The notes beneath the pieces are model-generated. The model ran no database searches. It was not told the origin of the DNA and saw only the letters and a list, made by a program, of their open reading frames with translations. The translations under genes were made by a program, and so were the position numbers. From sequence record NC_135732.1: a stretch of DNA of 64,000 nucleotides; one strand, written 5' to 3'. Shown piece by piece: positions 3,820 through 59,702 of this stretch (position 1 is its first letter; each line of letters opens with the position of its first letter). This stretch comes from a phage.

Positions 3820-4075
3820 TCTTGCTAAACCTGTAGAAGCACACCAGTTTGATGGAAGCTCTTCATCAGTATCTGATCTGCAACGGTGGATTGATACAGG
3901 TGTGTTTACATCGTCACCTGTTCGGACCAGAGATATTCGTCGCATGTGTGAGCTTGTTGAGCCGTTTGGCAACTTGGTTTTGTACCAGGGAGATTGGTTA
4001 GTTGACTTTATGGGAGACTGGTTGGTAATGAGTAAAGAAGAGATGTTTAAAATTTTTAAGGAAGAGGCCGAGTAA
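3806..4075 (+). CDS. hypothetical protein
   Basis: AAGGAGG RBS before ATG. Confidence 0.55.
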   Translation: MPLFNLAKPVEAHQFDGSSSSVSDLQRWIDTGVFTSSPVRTRDIRRMCELVEPFGNLVLYQGDWLVDFMGDWLVMSKEEMFKIFKEEAE

Positions 4076-5358
4076 TGCATCAAATCAAAACAACACTGTA
4101 CGCACTGAACAAAGATGGCAGCTACCAACAGTGGAAAGTATTCACTGATGGCGAAAAGGTTATCGTAGAGTTTGGCAAGCTTGACGGTAAATTGCAGTAC
4201 AAAGAGACGGTATGTACACCTAAAAACGTAGGTCGTGCCAACGAGACTACAGCTGAGCAACAGGCCGAGCTTGAGGCTATCAGCAAGTGGGAAAAACAAG
4301 TCCGTCTGGGGTATGTTGAAAACATGGAAGATTGCGAGCAGGGTGTTGATCTTTTACCTATGCTGGTGCATGACTACCTGAAGCGTGGCAAGGCACTTAA
4401 ATTACCTTGCTGGATCTTGCGTAAGTTAGATGGCCTTCGTCTGCTTGTTGTTTTCCAAAATGGTGAGCCTAAATTTATTTCCCGTGGTAATAAGTCCTAC
4501 CCTATTCAAGGAAAGCTTTTAGAGCAACTTCGTTCTTTCCATTCTACCACTGGGATTAAACAACTTGATGGGGAACTATACATTCATGGTCTTCCTTTGC
4601 AGAAAATAGTGTCTCTTGCTAAACGGTGGCGCACACAGGAAGAGATTCAGGCCGAGATCGATAAAGACTATGAGGCAGATAAAAAACGCCGTCATGCAGC
4701 AATTAAGGCAGGCTTATCAACATACAAAAACTTCAACAAGGTAGATATTCCTGTCGATGTTGAGCCTGTTCGTGATGATTTGCGTTACGGTGGATACTGT
4801 AGCTACGATCTGGAGTATCACATTTTTGATATTCCTAGCGACAAGGTGTGGTGGGATCCAGAAACAGAGTCTGGACGCTGCAAGGATCTTATGGATGCAG
4901 AGGATACCGTTACCACTCTGATGCTTGATCATATCAAGGTTGTTGACGCAGAGCTTGCGTACACAGTTGATCATTGCGAAGAATCTGTTGGTATATTCAT
5001 GTCCGAAGGATATGAAGGTACTATCATGCGTAATTTCTGCGGTAAATATGAGTATGGTCAGCGAACATCTGAAGCATTGAAATGGAAAAAGTTCAACGAC
5101 GCAGAGGTGAAAGTTATTGACGTTGAGAAAGATAAGAATGATGAAGGTGTTCTTATCTGTGTTGACAAGGAAGGTGTTGTTGTTAAAATGAAGATGAAAG
5201 GCACGCACGAGGAGCGTAGCTATGACAGAATGCAGGAAATGATCGGCAAGTTTGTCACCTTCAAATATCAAGCAAGGACAGAAGACAACAACTACCAATT
5301 CCCTGTCGGTATCTGCGTCCGAAATGTTAACCCAGACACTTGGGAGGTGCTTGAATGA
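4075..5358 (+). CDS. ATP-dependent DNA ligase
   Basis: Motif I KLDGLR (adenylation lysine), 427 aa; ATG overlaps upstream stop. Confidence 0.85.
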   Translation: MHQIKTTLYALNKDGSYQQWKVFTDGEKVIVEFGKLDGKLQYKETVCTPKNVGRANETTAEQQAELEAISKWEKQVRLGYVENMEDCEQGVDLLPMLVHDYLKRGKALKLPCWILRKLDGLRLLVVFQNGEPKFISRGNKSYPIQGKLLEQLRSFHSTTGIKQLDGELYIHGLPLQKIVSLAKRWRTQEEIQAEIDKDYEADKKRRHAAIKAGLSTYKNFNKVDIPVDVEPVRDDLRYGGYCSYDLEYHIFDIPSDKVWWDPETESGRCKDLMDAEDTVTTLMLDHIKVVDAELAYTVDHCEESVGIFMSEGYEGTIMRNFCGKYEYGQRTSEALKWKKFNDAEVKVIDVEKDKNDEGVLICVDKEGVVVKMKMKGTHEERSYDRMQEMIGKFVTFKYQARTEDNNYQFPVGICVRNVNPDTWEVLE

Positions 5359-5481
5359 TGTAGGAAGGTTCAGTAGGTAACGGTAGCCAATTGAATGATG
5401 GTTTTCAATCGGCACCTACATAACCACACTGTGTAGTGTTGTTGATCGTGTTAGTTATGAGTAAACTGGAGAGTATGAAAA

Positions 5482-5952
5482 ATGAAACTTGATAAAAATG
5501 TTCAACGAAAAGCTTTCTTGGACATGATCGCATATTCGGAAGGCACAGATAATGGTAGGCAACCCACTAAGGATCGGGGATACGATGTCATAGTTGGTGG
5601 CAAGCTGTTTAGCGATTACAGCAAGCATCCAGGTGTGTACGTTAAGCTAAATGCTAAACTTACCTCCTCCGCTGCTGGTCGTTACCAGGTTTTGGAGAAG
5701 TTTGCTAAACACTACATGGAACAGTTAGGATTGCCAGATTTTGGCCCCGCCAGTCAGGACAAGATTGCGTTGCAACTGATCCGTGAGTGCAAGGCTCTCG
5801 CCGACATTGACGAAGGGCGTATCCACGAGGCTATCCATAAATGCCGTTCCCGCTGGGCTTCGTTACCTGGTGCTGGATATGGTCAGCATGAACAGAAGAT
5901 CGAGAAGTTGATCGAGGTGTTTAAAAAGGCAGGCGGTGTTGTCCTTGATTGA
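5482..5952 (+). CDS. endolysin, lambda R-like lytic transglycosylase
   Basis: Near-colinear with lambda R as recalled: QRKAFLDM, AYSEGTDNGRQ, GYDVIVGG, RWASLPGAGYGQ. Confidence 0.9.
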   Translation: MKLDKNVQRKAFLDMIAYSEGTDNGRQPTKDRGYDVIVGGKLFSDYSKHPGVYVKLNAKLTSSAAGRYQVLEKFAKHYMEQLGLPDFGPASQDKIALQLIRECKALADIDEGRIHEAIHKCRSRWASLPGAGYGQHEQKIEKLIEVFKKAGGVVLD

Positions 5953-6015
5953 TCATTGACATAACCACACGGACGTGGTATTGTTACCTCATAAAATGTT
6001 TAGGAGGGCTTAACC

Positions 6016-6222
6016 ATGAAAGATTTTCTGTTGGCAATTTTGTTCATGGTAGCATGTCTGTCCTGTGGTGTCGTGTTTGCAGGTGAAACAGCGTATCTTG
6101 TCGATGTATATCGGGACAATGGTAAACGTATTTGCCTTTATGAGACAAGTCAAGGTGAGCTCTACGAGCTTGTGAAACAAGGTGAGGCAGGTTCCTGCCC
6201 TCGCACCCATTTCTTTGAATGA
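6016..6222 (+). CDS. small secreted or lipoprotein-like protein
   Basis: N-terminal hydrophobic signal-like segment LLAILFMVACLSCG; AGGAGGG RBS. Confidence 0.5.
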   Translation: MKDFLLAILFMVACLSCGVVFAGETAYLVDVYRDNGKRICLYETSQGELYELVKQGEAGSCPRTHFFE

Positions 6223-6232
6223 GGGAGAACAC

Positions 6233-6697
6233 GTGGAAGACGGACGTTTAATGAAGTCTGAACGCAGGCTTATTGTGCAACTGATCCCAGAAACAGCTTG
6301 GTATAATAACCTCCGAAACGCTGTGAAGAAGAGTGAGTGGGATAAGATACGTAAGAAGTGCTATAGAGAAGCCAACTACACTTGTGAGGTGTGCGGCGGT
6401 AAAGGCAGCAAACACCCAGTGGAGTGTCATGAACTTTACACTTTCGAAGAGGGAGTGATCCGGCTTGTCGGACTGATAGCACTGTGCCCGGATTGTCACA
6501 CATCGGTGCATCCTGGGTTAGCAAATATCCGTGGAAAGTATGCTCAGGCAGTTAATCAGTTGGCTAAGGTGAATAAGATCACCAAGAGTATGGCAGAGGC
6601 GTATTACCGAGACTGCTTTGCAGAGTGGCGTGAGCTTAGTAAAGTTCCAGAATGGAAGACTGACTTTTCGTGGATAGAGGGTTACCTTGATGGCTAA
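6233..6697 (+). CDS. HNH-family endonuclease
   Basis: CEVCGG...ECHELY...CPDCH Cys/His pattern; GTG 6233 after GAGGGAG, alternative ATG 6251. Confidence 0.5.
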   Translation: MEDGRLMKSERRLIVQLIPETAWYNNLRNAVKKSEWDKIRKKCYREANYTCEVCGGKGSKHPVECHELYTFEEGVIRLVGLIALCPDCHTSVHPGLANIRGKYAQAVNQLAKVNKITKSMAEAYYRDCFAEWRELSKVPEWKTDFSWIEGYLDG

Positions 6698-6980
6698 GAG
6701 ACCTGTAAAAGAGAAATTCGATAAGACAGCTTTTGTATTCGATACACCTCTGGACGACATCATTAGAGGTATGCAATCATTGTATCGGAAGGCTGAATCT
6801 GAGCAGCTGTCGGAATCAGAACTTTACTGGCTCGGTTGGTGGGAGTTAAACCTGCCTAAAGCTGAAAGTTCTTCTCTGAGAACTGTTAAAACGTGCGCCC
6901 AAGAAAACGCTGCACTTGGAATCTACCACAAAAGGAAAAGATCAACAAAAAGCTCTCCAAGAAAGACTAAAAAGTCTTGA
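6690..6980 (+). CDS. hypothetical protein, basic C-terminus
   Basis: ATG 6690 overlaps upstream stop; track start 6687 is TTG. Confidence 0.5.
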   Translation: MAKRPVKEKFDKTAFVFDTPLDDIIRGMQSLYRKAESEQLSESELYWLGWWELNLPKAESSSLRTVKTCAQENAALGIYHKRKRSTKSSPRKTKKS

Positions 6981-7006
6981 CAAAAGTGTTATTAATCTGA
7001 TATTAT
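6977..7006 (+). promoter_or_regulatory. sigma70-like promoter
   Basis: TTGACA, 18-nt spacer, TATTAT. Confidence 0.55.
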
Positions 7007-7039
7007 CGGTCAGATATCTATAAACTAGGAGAACTAGAT

Positions 7040-7348
7040 ATGCTTAAAATTTTTATTGTTGAAGATAAAGATATTGTCCAGTTGTATGCAAACGAGAATC
7101 ATAAAGGTATGATTCTGAAGAAGGCAAGCAACCTTCATGAAAACACAATTCAACCTGGCGATGTAATTAAGATCTGTGGTTATATGATACCAGACTCCTT
7201 GATGAAAATAACCCACCACTGGGGGTCTAATCCGTTCCTTTTTGAAAAGTATTGGGATGTTGAGTCACTTATTGCAGAGAGTGATGATGCATTCCATTAC
7301 AGCATCCAACCATCTTGCAGAATAACTAACAGGAGGGTCTTTGAGTAG
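7040..7348 (+). CDS. hypothetical protein
   Basis: AGGAGAA RBS. Confidence 0.55.
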   Translation: MLKIFIVEDKDIVQLYANENHKGMILKKASNLHENTIQPGDVIKICGYMIPDSLMKITHHWGSNPFLFEKYWDVESLIAESDDAFHYSIQPSCRITNRRVFE

Positions 7349-8480
7349 AGAATATCCACTTATTGAGTCCATAGATTGTCTGGCTGATCTTCTTGAACCT
7401 GACGCTATAGTTTATTATGACTTCGATCAGGTTGCATATCAAGCTGCAGCAAGTTGTGAAAAAAGGACAATTGAGGTAACACACAAAGCCTCCGGACGTA
7501 AGAAGATGTTTAAAACACGAACAGAGTTCTGGGGGCGGCAGAAGAACACAGTTGGTGGTTGGTTAAAAGCTGAGAATACCAACCGTGAAGCTGCATGTAA
7601 AAAGGCTGGCAAGGAGTTTATTCCGTGGACACGAGAAGATTTCGATGTCTTGGATATCCAAACCCCTGATCCTGTAGAGAACTGCTTGCACACAATTAAG
7701 TGTAAAGCGAATGCAGTCCTTAATTATCTCGGTATTCCGGAAGATCGGTGCGTGGGGGTACTTGGAGGCACAGGTAATTTCAGACTAGATCTTCCCATGC
7801 CGGAAAGATATAAAGCCAACCGTAACAATACTCTTCGACCACTGCTGCTTGGAGATGCAAGACAGTATCTCCAAAAGCAGTATAATGCTCAAGTGATCAA
7901 CGGTATCGAGGCTGACGACTGGTTAGCTATCCAGCAATTTGAAGGTTGGAACCACTACCAAAAAACAGGTAAGTTCAACAAGTTTATTATCTCTATTGAT
8001 AAGGACCAAAGAACACTGCCGGGGCTTGTGTTCGATCCCATGCGAAACGATAAGGGAGATTTTGTAAGGGAAACCCCTATGCTGATCGATAACGGTATGG
8101 GGAACATCTTCATGAAGCCTAATGGAGAGGTTGGTGGTTACGGAATGCTGTTCTTCGGATACCAAATGCTGTGTGGTGACTCTGCCGACAATATCAAGCC
8201 GTATCAAGGACTTATCGGTAAGGGTAAGTTCGGGGATGCCTCAGCATTCTACCTACTGTCTCAGTGCAGCACTCCAAAGGAGATGTGGGTGGCTATTATT
8301 GATCAGTACAAGAAGTGGTTCCCGAAAGGTGTTGTTAAGTATACTGACTTCAATGGTGTTGATCGTAGAATTTCCGTAGGTCAATGGATGAGTATAATTT
8401 TTGACTGTTTGTATATGAAGCGAACATTCAATGATCAAACAAAACTTGTTAACGTTCTCAGAAATGTTGGAGCAATTTGA
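7341..8480 (+). CDS. 5'-3' exonuclease / flap endonuclease (FEN family)
   Basis: GIEADDWLA and GDSADNIKPY acidic motifs typical of phage 5' nucleases; TTG start after AGGAGGG. Confidence 0.6.
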   Translation: MSREYPLIESIDCLADLLEPDAIVYYDFDQVAYQAAASCEKRTIEVTHKASGRKKMFKTRTEFWGRQKNTVGGWLKAENTNREAACKKAGKEFIPWTREDFDVLDIQTPDPVENCLHTIKCKANAVLNYLGIPEDRCVGVLGGTGNFRLDLPMPERYKANRNNTLRPLLLGDARQYLQKQYNAQVINGIEADDWLAIQQFEGWNHYQKTGKFNKFIISIDKDQRTLPGLVFDPMRNDKGDFVRETPMLIDNGMGNIFMKPNGEVGGYGMLFFGYQMLCGDSADNIKPYQGLIGKGKFGDASAFYLLSQCSTPKEMWVAIIDQYKKWFPKGVVKYTDFNGVDRRISVGQWMSIIFDCLYMKRTFNDQTKLVNVLRNVGAI

Positions 8481-8812
8481 TGACTAAAAATTCTGTAGAT
8501 AGTGCAATTATGGAAGCTGTTTTTGAGGATGATCATACAACAGGGACACTTAAAACAAAAAATACATTCGTTGTTGCCACAGGTATGTGGCGGTTGTATG
8601 AAGATGACACCATTTCATACATCCTGTACACTGATGATTACGCAGATGACCGTGTATGGTCTGCTGTTTTAAAAGAGGATTGTGAACTGATTGAGGGCGA
8701 GCGGTTATGCATGTTCACCAGTGTGGAAACAGATGTTAAGCTTTGCTCTCTCGTCTTGTTCAAAGATAAGGCTTATGCTCCTGATGAAGGAGAGGAGGAT
8801 GAGGAAGTATGA
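8480..8812 (+). CDS. hypothetical protein
   Basis: ATG 8480 overlaps upstream stop; GGAG RBS. Confidence 0.5.
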   Translation: MTKNSVDSAIMEAVFEDDHTTGTLKTKNTFVVATGMWRLYEDDTISYILYTDDYADDRVWSAVLKEDCELIEGERLCMFTSVETDVKLCSLVLFKDKAYAPDEGEEDEEV

Positions 8813-9438
8813 GAGAGCGTCTATTATCCATAGACCAGTCGTTGACACACACAGCTTGCGTTGTATGGGACGATGGAAAGCCTGTTCATAAGGTTGTGTT
8901 ACGAACTCAAAGCTCATCTGCAAAAGAGAAGAAACCAGGGACGGTTTCTTTTGCAACAGCTGCTGAGCGTATTGACTGGATCTGCAAACAGGTCAGATAT
9001 TATATCCACACGCATGGAGTTGACACCGTGGTTATGGAAGGACTTTCCTTCGGATCTCGCGGGGATGCCACACGTGAACTGGCTGGGTTGTTTTACGGTC
9101 TCGAAGTTATGCTTTGGGATGCTTTAGCTGATTGTGAAAATGACGGCCTGTTTAAGGTTCACACAGTGACACCAACAACTGCCAAAAAGTTTGCTCGTAG
9201 TCATCTTCCTGAAGAACTTGCTTTTGAGGAGAAGAAAAAGCTTGACAAAAAGACAGGTAAAGAGCATACTGTGAAGAAACCTGTTACGATGGATAAAAAG
9301 TTGATGGTTAAGGCCTGCGAAGTATCTGAACCAGGGTTCCTAGATGGGATCAATTTGGTACAAGGTAAGGCCGATCTCGCAGATGCTTATTGGATAGGCA
9401 GGGCGCATCTGGAGGGGTTATCGCAAAGCGTAAAATAA
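8809..9438 (+). CDS. RuvC-like Holliday junction resolvase
   Basis: LSIDQS...VVMEGLSFG...DLADAYWIGRA resembles RuvC catalytic acidic residues; GAGGAGGA RBS. Confidence 0.5.
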   Translation: MRERLLSIDQSLTHTACVVWDDGKPVHKVVLRTQSSSAKEKKPGTVSFATAAERIDWICKQVRYYIHTHGVDTVVMEGLSFGSRGDATRELAGLFYGLEVMLWDALADCENDGLFKVHTVTPTTAKKFARSHLPEELAFEEKKKLDKKTGKEHTVKKPVTMDKKLMVKACEVSEPGFLDGINLVQGKADLADAYWIGRAHLEGLSQSVK

Positions 9439-9995
9439 GAAAGAAAGCTGTCAAAGCCCCCGTTCATAGCGGGTGGCTAAAAGATTCTAAGGACATAGCC
9501 AACTTTCGAAAAGAATTGTCAGAGGAGCAGGATGGTCTTGATCCGATCTTGTGCGAGCCACTTCGTAAGCCTTGTTTAGATCATGATCATCTGACTGGTC
9601 GTTGCAGGGGTGTTTTGTCTCAGTGCACTAATACCTTTGAGGGGTATGTGCTTAAATACTGGATGAAATACTGTAACGAGTATACAGATTGCAGTTTATC
9701 AGAGGCGTTGCGCCGGATGGCTGACTATCTGGAGAAAGACTACAGCGACTTCCCGCTCCACAAAAACTACAGAGATGATATGACAAAGTTCTTGAGGAGA
9801 TGCTCTAAAGCTACGATTATTGCACGAGCAGAATCAGATCTCAATCTTGTCATTAATCCAGAGTGCACCAAGCATGAGGCTATTGAGTCCTACATGCAGG
9901 AGTTTATAAAGAAAACTGAGGAGAGAGATTTCTATGGGGATGAAAAAGGTATTCAATCCTTGCGACTCAGTCCTGATCAGGATGAAATACCGTAA
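9390..9995 (+). CDS. recombination endonuclease VII-like
   Basis: CLDHDHLTGRCRGVLSQCTN matches the endo VII zinc/His motif; TTG start, overlaps upstream gene. Confidence 0.65.
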   Translation: MDRQGASGGVIAKRKIRKKAVKAPVHSGWLKDSKDIANFRKELSEEQDGLDPILCEPLRKPCLDHDHLTGRCRGVLSQCTNTFEGYVLKYWMKYCNEYTDCSLSEALRRMADYLEKDYSDFPLHKNYRDDMTKFLRRCSKATIIARAESDLNLVINPECTKHEAIESYMQEFIKKTEERDFYGDEKGIQSLRLSPDQDEIP

Positions 9996-22482: not shown

Positions 22483-22545
22483 TTCTTGACAAAAGCCACA
22501 AGGATGTGGCATATTATTGACACACAGTGAGCTAGGAGGTGTAGT

Positions 22546-22662
22546 ATGTCATCAGGTATTTATAAAATTTGCAAGTGCGGCTGTAGTTGTAATCTTCGTT
22601 GGTGCAAGGCACTAGACGATTTTATTTGGCATTGCCCTAAATGTGATGCGGAGTATCTATGA
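22546..22662 (+). CDS. small Cys-rich peptide (38 aa)
   Basis: AGGAGG RBS then ATG; CKCGCSC...CPKC; stop overlaps nrdG start; below track length cut-off. Confidence 0.4.
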   Translation: MSSGIYKICKCGCSCNLRWCKALDDFIWHCPKCDAEYL

Positions 22663-29473: not shown

Positions 29474-29535
29474 TAGTTGAGATATGGCACAAAGGATGTG
29501 CCATAGTGAAATAAACTAAGAAAGAGGTAGAGAGA

Positions 29536-39875: not shown

Positions 39876-39888
39876 CACCGATAATCAG

Positions 39889-40138
39889 CCATGCCATTCG
39901 TTTGCATGACAATAATTATACATGACAATAATCGCACTGATTATAATTAGCATGACATAATATAAAAGCAGGGCAACTATTAGCAGATCTATAGTTGCCT
40001 TGCTTGTTATGTCATGATTAACTAAATACAAGGCAACTATGATCTGATTAATAGTTTGCAGACAAACTATCACGGGGGTGATGGTTACTGCTTTTATATT
40101 ATGTCGCGACTCCGTCGCGCCATGCCATTCGTTTGCAT
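39889..40138. repeat. symmetric element: 18-bp direct repeats flanking inverted repeats
   Basis: CATGCCATTCGTTTGCAT at 39890 and 40121; inverted arms 39950-39971 and 40089-40111; internal hairpin 39971-39998. Confidence 0.6.
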
Positions 40139-40799: not shown

Positions 40800-41064
40800 T
40801 TATTTGTTGCTCATCCAGTTTTCCCAAGCTGCCTGATAATCTGCCTCACTACGGCGGATCTCTTCTTGCTCTTCAAGGCGGATCTCTTCTTCCAGGTACC
40901 CCAAGATGTCAGCCTTTTTGGTCTGGCGTAACATCCAATCATCTTTTTTTACGAGTGAAGATCTTATAAGCTTTCTCGCAAACCTCTTTTTTGCTACCTT
41001 TCTGGACTTCAAGAATTCTGTAGGCCATGTACTGAACTAATTTAAGCTGATCCAGACGTTTCAT
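40800..41064 (-). pseudogene. small basic protein gene with apparent 1-nt frameshift at an A7 tract
   Basis: ATG 41064 frame stops at 40939; downstream frame (track ORF 40800..41012, TTG start) continues; junction at homopolymer 40944-40950. Confidence 0.4.
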
Positions 41065-44590: not shown

Positions 44591-44786
44591 TAAATGAGAA
44601 CTCCTCGCATTTAATAAATTTAATTAGCATGCTAATTACCCTCCGTAACAATTTCCTATAAAACAGTATCCCATAAAATATTCCCATATAGAAATTTTAA
44701 AAATCCATTTCTGAAAACGAAAAATCGATTTCGTCCCCAAAAATTTCAGGTCGAGAGCTGGAACGATTTCCAGAAAATCCGATTCA

Positions 44787-44882
44787 GAAAACGAAAAACA
44801 GATCGAGTACTTGGAAATTTATCGAGAAAAATTTTCAGAAAATTCAATCTTTGAAACGAAAAACAGATCGAGTACTTGGAAA
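44787..44882. repeat. tandem direct repeats, about 66-bp period
   Basis: AACGAAAAACAGATCGAGTACTTGGAA identical at about 44790 and 44856; degenerate third copy near 44711. Confidence 0.6.
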
Positions 44883-45187
44883 GCTGTACCGCAACTTCAA
44901 GATAGTGGTTAGATTATTACCATAAAAGGTCAAGGGTAAGTGGAGGAAGTTCTAGTAGAAGGATGTGAGCATGTGCGGGAAATCTGTAATGGTGGTCTGG
45001 AATATGGTGCAAACGATAGGATGAGCGATTCAGCTTGTCGCGCCTACTCTGAAAAATCCATTTTAGTTTTCGATCCATTTTCTGATTTTCTAAGAATTTT
45101 AAAATATCTGGTCCGGTTAAATATCAAAAGGAGGAAATCCATTTTAGAAATCCTCCTGATCTCTAGCAACCTGATAACTTAAAAATA

Positions 45188-48666: not shown

Positions 48667-48685
48667 TTTTCAGATCTCCTTATAC

Positions 48686-48714
48686 AAAAATGCCCCACCC
48701 TTTCGGGCAGGGCT
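48686..48714 (-). terminator. rho-independent terminator (repeated element)
   Basis: Minus-strand CCCTGCCC-GAAA-GGGTGGGG hairpin then U-run; same 20-nt core recurs at 59681-59700. Confidence 0.6.
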
Positions 48715-59656: not shown

Positions 59657-59673
59657 TTTGCTGTCTCCTAATG

Positions 59674-59702
59674 CAAAAAGCCCCACCCTTTCGGGCAGGG
59701 CC
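59674..59702 (-). terminator. rho-independent terminator (second copy of repeated element)
   Basis: Same CCCTGCCC-GAAA-GGGTGGGG hairpin then U-run as at 48693. Confidence 0.6.

Follow-up and report, generated by a model that had tools for sequence, protein, structure and literature searches.

In the coliphage rV5, a σ70-type promoter was predicted between the lysozyme gene (ORF 89) and ORF 90, where it is listed as P090 (Table S4/Additional file 4 in Kropinski et al., 2013, Virol J 10:76, PMC3606486); in the rV5 record it occupies positions 72049-72077 and is annotated as 'Sigma70-type promoter; P90' (NC_011041). The same record notes a transmembrane domain for ORF 90. Thirty-one other σ70-type promoters are published for rV5, as is a putative late motif, TggTAaAAtA, most high-scoring matches of which are on the opposite strand, the site of the structural genes. 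Two other described groups of promoters bear a likeness to the locus analyzed here: the extended −10 promoters of Escherichia coli (TGnTATAAT), and promoters with an operator between the −35 and the −10 elements, such as tetO and the operators of P22 Arc/Mnt (see below).

Here, we analyze a stretch of phage DNA of 64,000 nucleotides (NC_135732.1; hereafter, the window), in which an earlier note had pointed to a conserved motif of roughly 28 nt on both sides of a lysozyme gene, and had proposed that it could be a phage-specific late or middle promoter, or else a recombination footprint marking the lysozyme as an inserted cassette. We consider it likely that no functional element is common to the two copies, that downstream of the gene being the equivalent of P90, an ordinary host-type promoter, and the upstream copy a look-alike in the lysozyme leader which would not be a promoter, and whose resemblance to P90 would be a coincidence or an old remnant.

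The source phage and the genes around the lysozyme

To judge from its sequence, the source phage is a Vequintavirus, an rV5-like coliphage. Over the 5 kb compared (positions 4000-9000 of the window), the identity to Escherichia phage ime is 99.9%, about 130 other Vequintavirus records match, and position 1 of the window corresponds to about position 9515 of ime. For genome-wide motif counts, a genome of about 131 kb was rebuilt from the window and phage ime. A search of IMG/VR with the ligase protein returned one relative only, and the other relatives were therefore drawn from the phage records in GenBank. Many near-identical GenBank records are labelled 'Campylobacter phage' though they are Vequintavirus genomes. 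The window is also without about 6.1 kb present in phage ime (MN850576), somewhere between window positions ~13000 and 57800.

The genes of the region are all on the + strand. Upstream of the lysozyme is the gene for an ATP-dependent DNA ligase (4075-5358), followed by the lysozyme gene itself (5482-5952), by the gene for a 68-residue protein with a hydrophobic N-terminus, equivalent to rV5 ORF 90 (6016-6222; PHROG 4641, function unknown), and by that for an HNH endonuclease (6233-6697), after which more genes follow. The lysozyme, or endolysin, is of the lambda R type and 156 residues long; it matches PDB entries 1AM7 (E = 3e-56) and 3D3D (E ~1e-56) and belongs to PHROG 90 (endolysin). The first of these structures and the PHROG assignment show that the gene had been correctly called as a lambda R-like lysozyme. 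In YP-6, related HNH genes precede the lysozyme; in isim, FV3, RudolfGeigy and ECML-10, they follow it.

ORF 90, the first gene 3′ of P90, codes for a protein which, of 123 matching records, has at least 94% identity in 119; outside Vequintavirus, the matches are weak (34-37% identity), and the protein is nearly restricted to the genus. Cysteines are present in it (MKDFLLAILFMVACLSCGVVFAG...). Because the gene adjoins that of the lysozyme, a role of the ORF 90 protein in lysis or in a membrane function is possible.

The repeated 12-mer

The sequence found on both sides of the lysozyme gene is an exact 12-mer, ACATAACCACAC, at 5418-5429 and 5959-5970; both copies are intergenic and on the + strand, with 64 nt from the start of the first to the ATG of the lysozyme (5482) and 57 nt from the start of the second to the next ATG (6016). 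They are the sole exact copies in the window and in the rebuilt genome of ~131 kb. Beyond the 12-mer, an ungapped alignment of the two copies yields background identity, and TTGTT can be brought into register only by opening a 1-nt gap; in the best local alignment, 12 matches in 12 positions are followed by nine matches over 15 columns, including one gap. Thus, of the ~28-nt motif originally described, the exact 12-mer is present at both places, but the remainder aligns only with a gap and several mismatches.

As a repeat in excess of chance, the 12-mer is a borderline case. In Markov-1 random sequence of matching composition, the expected number of isolated exact pairs of 12-mers at most 1 kb apart is 5.7 ± 3.2 per window, and the window does have other such pairs, several in number. 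Shuffling of the two intergenic regions gave p ~6e-4 for the similarity of the two copies. This similarity ranks second among the 54 adjacent intergenic pairs and fifth to sixth among the 1653 same-strand intergenic pairs, where the scores form a continuous tail (28, 28, 27, 27, 26...). When up to two or three mismatches were allowed, no copies beyond chance were found in the window or in the ~131-kb genome; the latter holds two exact copies and four with at most one mismatch, and the near-matches are without extended similarity, several of them being inside annotated genes. The genome-wide search by which recurrence of the motif was to be checked returned no other copy in ~131 kb. A scan of IMG/VR for ACATAACCACAC-N4-6-GTG gave 76 single matches, mostly in unrelated contigs, a number that looks like chance for such a pattern; no more than two of the contigs have the size of a Vequintavirus genome.

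Repeats of other kinds were also noted in the window. A cluster of direct repeats at 44699-45136 has a unit of ~30 nt (GAAAACGAAAAACAGATCGAGTACTTGGAAA) at a spacing of 65 nt, together with AAATCCATTTTAG repeats; an exact direct repeat of 20 nt (GCCATGCCATTCGTTTGCAT) is found at 39888-39907 and 40119-40138, 231 nt apart, and a 15-nt repeat at 40853 and 40877. Two intergenic regions, at 48675-48713 and 59664-59701, have in common a 39-nt stretch that ends in a GC-rich hairpin (GCCCCACCCTTTCGGGCAGGGC) and is probably a shared terminator.

The downstream copy and promoter P90

The downstream copy of the longer motif (5959-5987, + strand) falls largely within a σ70-type promoter, the equivalent of rV5 P90, at 5956-5984 (+ strand), recognized by a consensus scan, by a position weight matrix (PWM) and from the prior annotation. 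The promoter is formed by a −35 element, TTGACA (5956-5961), a spacer of 17 nt (5962-5978) with the dinucleotide TG at 5976-5977, and a −10 element, TATTGT (5979-5984). The 12-mer at 5959-5970 corresponds to the last 3 nt of the −35 element plus the first 9 nt of the spacer, and the remainder of the copy to the rest of the spacer, the −10 element and 3 nt past it. Transcription is predicted to start near A5991. With a PWM trained on the 31 other published rV5 σ70-type promoters, P90 having been left out, the site scores 17.0 bits, compared with a training median of 17.7 bits; the score is reached by 0.013% of genome positions, a fraction computed on a reconstruction of the genome with ~6 kb duplicated.

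P90 is kept in all of the 15 relatives read, with the −35 element, a match to TTGACA at six of six positions, and the 17-nt spacing both invariant. The −10 element has A at −11 and T at −7, and reads TATTGT here, TACTGT in ECML-10 and TATTTT in rV5. The promoter is conserved even in V18 and YP-6, next to a lysozyme of only ~77% identity, and in the IMG/VR relative the flanks have diverged and the 29-nt promoter is unchanged. The 12-mer within P90 has variants: isim, RudolfGeigy and NHEP1 have ACATGACCACAC, and Aya has ACACAACCACAC.

This promoter is already known, having been predicted and annotated in rV5, where it is at the orthologous position, between the lysozyme gene and ORF 90 as here. 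The two sites, both of them computational predictions, differ in the −10 element only (TTGACATAACCACACGGACGTGGTATTTT in rV5 versus ...TATTGT in the window). In relation to the extended −10 promoters of E. coli, the downstream copy is alike in the perfect −35, in the 17-nt spacing, in the TG at −15/−14 and in the A at −11 and T at −7 of the −10 element; it is unlike them in that the −10 matches at four of six positions, and in that the spacer carries a conserved inverted repeat (see below). The upstream copy, in contrast, shares none of the features of these promoters. In the literature searched, no transcriptome or start-site study of a Vequintavirus was found, and both the activity of P90 and the inactivity of the upstream copy are predictions.

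The suggestion that the motif is a promoter is thus borne out for the downstream copy, which is of the host σ70 type, but not for the upstream copy, at which no promoter is recognizable. A phage-specific late or middle promoter, the form in which the suggestion had been made, finds no counterpart here, as the P90 score is that of a host-type promoter and the late motif is at neither copy. For the rV5/T4-like late motif (TggTAaAAtA/TATAAATA), the best scores are 0.4 bits in the ligase-lysozyme region and 2.0 bits in the lysozyme-ORF 90 region, and the published rV5 late-motif sites score 11.4-18.5 bits; P90 shares GTGGTA with the motif. The MotA box of T4 middle promoters, (a/t)(a/t)(a/t)TGCTTtA with its center near −30, is not represented, there being no TGCTT in 5359-5481 or 5953-6015, and the motif does not recur in the ~131 kb in front of many genes, as does the conserved sequence of ~20 nt in the T7/SP6-like class of promoters for a phage RNA polymerase. 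The scan for intrinsic terminators (GC-rich stem followed by a T-run) gave none at either copy. Rfam gave no match at gathering scores in the whole window, and none at E up to 1 in 5300-6100.

The upstream copy and the lysozyme leader

The upstream copy (5418-5446, + strand), formed by the 12-mer (5418-5429) and then TGTGTAGTGTTGTTGAT, is in the 5′ untranslated region of the lysozyme. Read in the register of P90 it would be CCTACA-16-TGTTGT, which scores −8.1 bits as opposed to 17.0 for P90. The best σ70-like site within 30 nt of this copy scores 2.7 bits and is not conserved, and transcription from it would start past the ribosome-binding site. No pair of −35 and −10 hexamers at a spacing of 16-18 nt was found at the copy, the candidate −10 hexamers differ among relatives (TAGTGT, TGCAGT, CACAGT), and a usable −35 or −10 is lacking at this position in each of the 14 relatives with this intergenic region. 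As RNA, the copy folds no better than shuffled sequence (z = 0.17), and the ligase-lysozyme leader has no significant structure in the window (z = −0.44). Regulation of the kind known for T4 gene e, with a ribosome-binding site masked in early transcripts and a late promoter in the hairpin, was considered and rejected, as there is neither a late motif nor a stable occluding structure.

Just 3′ of the ligase stop codon, and 5′ of the upstream copy, a hairpin with a 10-bp stem, GCCAATTGAA-tgatggtt-TTCAATCGGC (5386-5413, + strand), can be read from the sequence; it has no U-tract, and the stem is kept in relatives. The IMG/VR relative has a different, GC-rich hairpin at this place.

Relatives differ in this region. 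In V18 there is no ligase-lysozyme intergenic region and the two genes overlap, and in FV3, JES2013, Mangalyan, Aya and YP-6, 28 extra bases are present directly 5′ of the position of the 12-mer (hereafter, the long form), this 28-nt indel being flanked by ACATA-like repeats. At the 12-mer position the long-form relatives have ACATAGCCACAC, ACCTAGCCACAC, ACATAACCATGC or ATATACCCATGC, which match the 12-mer at 8-11 of 12 positions; the short-form relatives have the 12-mer exact at the upstream copy except NHEP1 (11/12). Of 116 relatives, about 95 are of the short form, and these 95 are all close to one another. The long-form region folds into a hairpin (z = −1.7 to −2.4) with the homologue of the 12-mer in the loop, and in the short form of the window the 5′ arm of this hairpin has been lost. 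In FV3, a long-form relative, the 11/12 match at the homologous position is followed by GTGGT, as in P90, which implies that the similarity of the two copies is older than the deletion, and that it could stem from an early duplication. In any one genome, however, the copies have drifted independently of each other, and their similarity is non-significant in NHEP1, Aya, YP-6 and JES2013 (p 0.07-0.13).

Hence, when conservation is checked in relatives, the upstream copy turns out to be absent or altered in the divergent ones. The earlier note had itself set out that a lack of recurrence elsewhere upstream of late genes, together with a lack of conservation in relatives, would refute its reading of the motif, and both were found, the former for the genome as a whole and the latter for the upstream copy in divergent relatives.

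The lysozyme gene is probably transcribed from upstream, either by read-through or from a promoter-like site within the ligase gene. A candidate for such an internal promoter is a σ70-like site at 5162-5189 (+ strand), inside the 3′-end of the ligase gene and ~320 nt 5′ of the ATG of the lysozyme; it reads TTGACA-16-TAAAAT, has an extended −10 TG and scores 18.5 bits. Its hexamers are kept in relatives and the third-codon (synonymous) positions of its spacer vary, although the numbers are too small for a statistical decision.

An inverted repeat in the spacer of P90 and at two other sites

The spacer of P90 contains an inverted repeat, ACCAC-ACGGAC-GTGGT (5964-5979, + strand), with a folding energy of −10.4 kcal/mol (z = −2.4), and the conservation of the spacer is probably due to this repeat. 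Two related sites were found on the + strand of the window. The site at 22486-22515, intergenic between nrdD and nrdG, reads TTGACA-aaag-GCCACA-AGGA-TGTGGC, with the repeat at 22495-22510 overlapping CATATT, and is conserved in 10C2, PDX and WalterGehring. That at 29477-29507 reads TTGAGA-tat-GGCACA-AAGGA-TGTGCC, with the repeat at 29486-29502 overlapping CATAGT; its orthologues in FV3, BP9 and EPFV3 have kept the hairpin but not the −35-like hexamer. Each of the three sites (5956, 22486 and 29477) is intergenic, is on the + strand and starts at most a few bases from the stop codon of the gene before it. A −35-like hexamer, TTGACA or TTGAGA, is present in each, together with an inverted repeat with a GGA-containing loop; the 3′ arm of this repeat (GTGG/GTGC) runs into a −10-like hexamer, TATTGT, CATATT or CATAGT, with a 1-base overlap at two of the three. 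From site to site, both bases are changed in two of the six stem pairs. A profile made from the three sites finds those three only in the genome; it does not find the upstream copy of the 12-mer, and there is no fourth member.

We raise, tentatively and with considerable doubt, the reading that a GGA-loop hairpin which follows a stop codon and overlaps an extended −10 promoter may be a small, undescribed regulatory element of Vequintavirus and, jointly with this, that the conserved part of the downstream copy may be the spacer inverted repeat and not the 12-mer. Such an element could be an operator, or a signal for RNA 3′-end formation or processing. The three sites are like tetO and the Arc/Mnt operators in having an inverted repeat in the spacer; they are unlike them in that their loops vary from 4 to 6 nt, a variation that is easier to reconcile with a hairpin than with a fixed dimer site. 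The NrdR box, CRP and other E. coli operators are not known to agree with these inverted repeats in both arm spacing and orientation.

A link of the three sites to homing endonuclease genes was rejected, since the gene upstream of 29477 matches a virion structural family, not HNH. Between nrdD and nrdG there is a cysteine-rich ORF of 38 residues (22546-22662; PHROG 20137), the stop codon of which overlaps the nrdG start (ATGA); the hairpin that precedes this ORF is directly followed, in WalterGehring, by an inserted gene for a homing endonuclease.

Discussion

In comparison among the relatives, the lysozyme emerges as a variable module, richer in GC, within a hotspot of homing endonuclease genes. 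At least three or four alleles occur in Vequintavirus, of 156 residues here and of 165 in ECML-10, besides one type in V18/YP-6 and another in isim, the latter with a 3′-end of its own; the gene has a GC content of 47.6% versus 43.0% for the window, within the top 3.4% of equal-sized windows, and its DNA is 67-77% identical to that of lysozymes of Salmonella siphoviruses. These features can be cited for the 12-mers being direct repeats produced by insertion of a lysozyme cassette (a target-site duplication or att-like sites), or sites of allele exchange, and so can the return of identity to V18 and YP-6 at ~5956, the start of P90. Such an origin of the 12-mers is nevertheless highly improbable. 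V18 has kept a lysozyme, fused to the ligase stop codon, without the upstream copy; the left breakpoint of homology to ECML-10 is inside the lysozyme gene, at ~5510, away from the upstream 12-mer; no empty site, with the ligase next to ORF 90 and no lysozyme, was found among 286 matching records; and no recombinase, transposase, integrase or terminal inverted repeats were found at the boundaries, the neighbours being the ligase, ORF 90 and an HNH homing endonuclease. Homing endonucleases work via double-strand-break repair and leave no direct repeats. The return of identity at ~5956 is no more than the border with the strongly conserved ORF-90 block. The idea of an inserted cassette thus survives as regards the variability, the base composition and the setting of the gene, but not as regards the 12-mers, which are not supported as its footprint.

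That the upstream copy descends from a duplication of the P90 region, for instance as a former lysozyme promoter which lost its −35 and −10 elements and is now functionless, would account for the 12/12 identity with its gapped extension, for the FV3 sequence, and for the common strand and the similar distance to a start codon. We regard it as unlikely, as no usable −35 or −10 is left in any of the 14 relatives that keep the region, similarity does not extend into the flanks, what can be aligned in most relatives is the 12-mer alone or even less, and unrelated intergenic pairs reach an equal score. Alternatively, ACATAACCACAC could in both places be the binding site of a single factor, from the phage or the host, or define a phage-specific class of middle or late promoters, and in this way co-regulate the lysozyme and the downstream operon, a proposal for which the same orientation of two intergenic copies that flank a lysis gene can be cited, as well as a conservation of the P90 spacer that exceeds the need of a plain σ70 spacer. 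However, there are two sites only in ~131 kb, and they are not in the same register, the 12-mer being at −32 to −21 of P90 versus −28 to −17 of the sole −10-like hexamer near the upstream copy, a shift of 4 nt. Moreover, the upstream copy is variable or absent in relatives in which the lysozyme is retained, the 12-mer of the downstream copy varies (ACATGACC, ACACAACC) without matching changes upstream, and a match to the late motif is absent. We therefore hold a common regulatory role of the two copies to be very unlikely.

The reading that we favor is that of two unlike elements which happen to have 12 bases in common. P90 would be used by the host RNA polymerase with σ70; transcription would start ~25 nt upstream of the ORF 90 gene, and would drive this gene and the + strand genes after it. 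The upstream copy would be non-promoter DNA in the untranslated leader of the lysozyme; in relatives, this stretch appears as the loop region of a longer hairpin, and the short form in the window looks as though 28 nt had been deleted between two ACATA repeats. The identity over 12 bases would then be a coincidence or, at most, the remnant of an old shared sequence, and would not be maintained by selection. Against coincidence we count the p value for the pair (~6e-4), the same strand and similar distances to the start codons (64 and 57 nt), and the 11/12 match in FV3.

It follows that the motif which brackets the lysozyme is not to be annotated as a promoter class or as a cassette boundary. 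Two by-products of the analysis are the lysozyme locus as a variable module and homing endonuclease hotspot, and a spacer hairpin common to three promoter-like sites. For Vequintavirus as a whole, the published, predicted promoter P90 of rV5 is confirmed as conserved across the genus.
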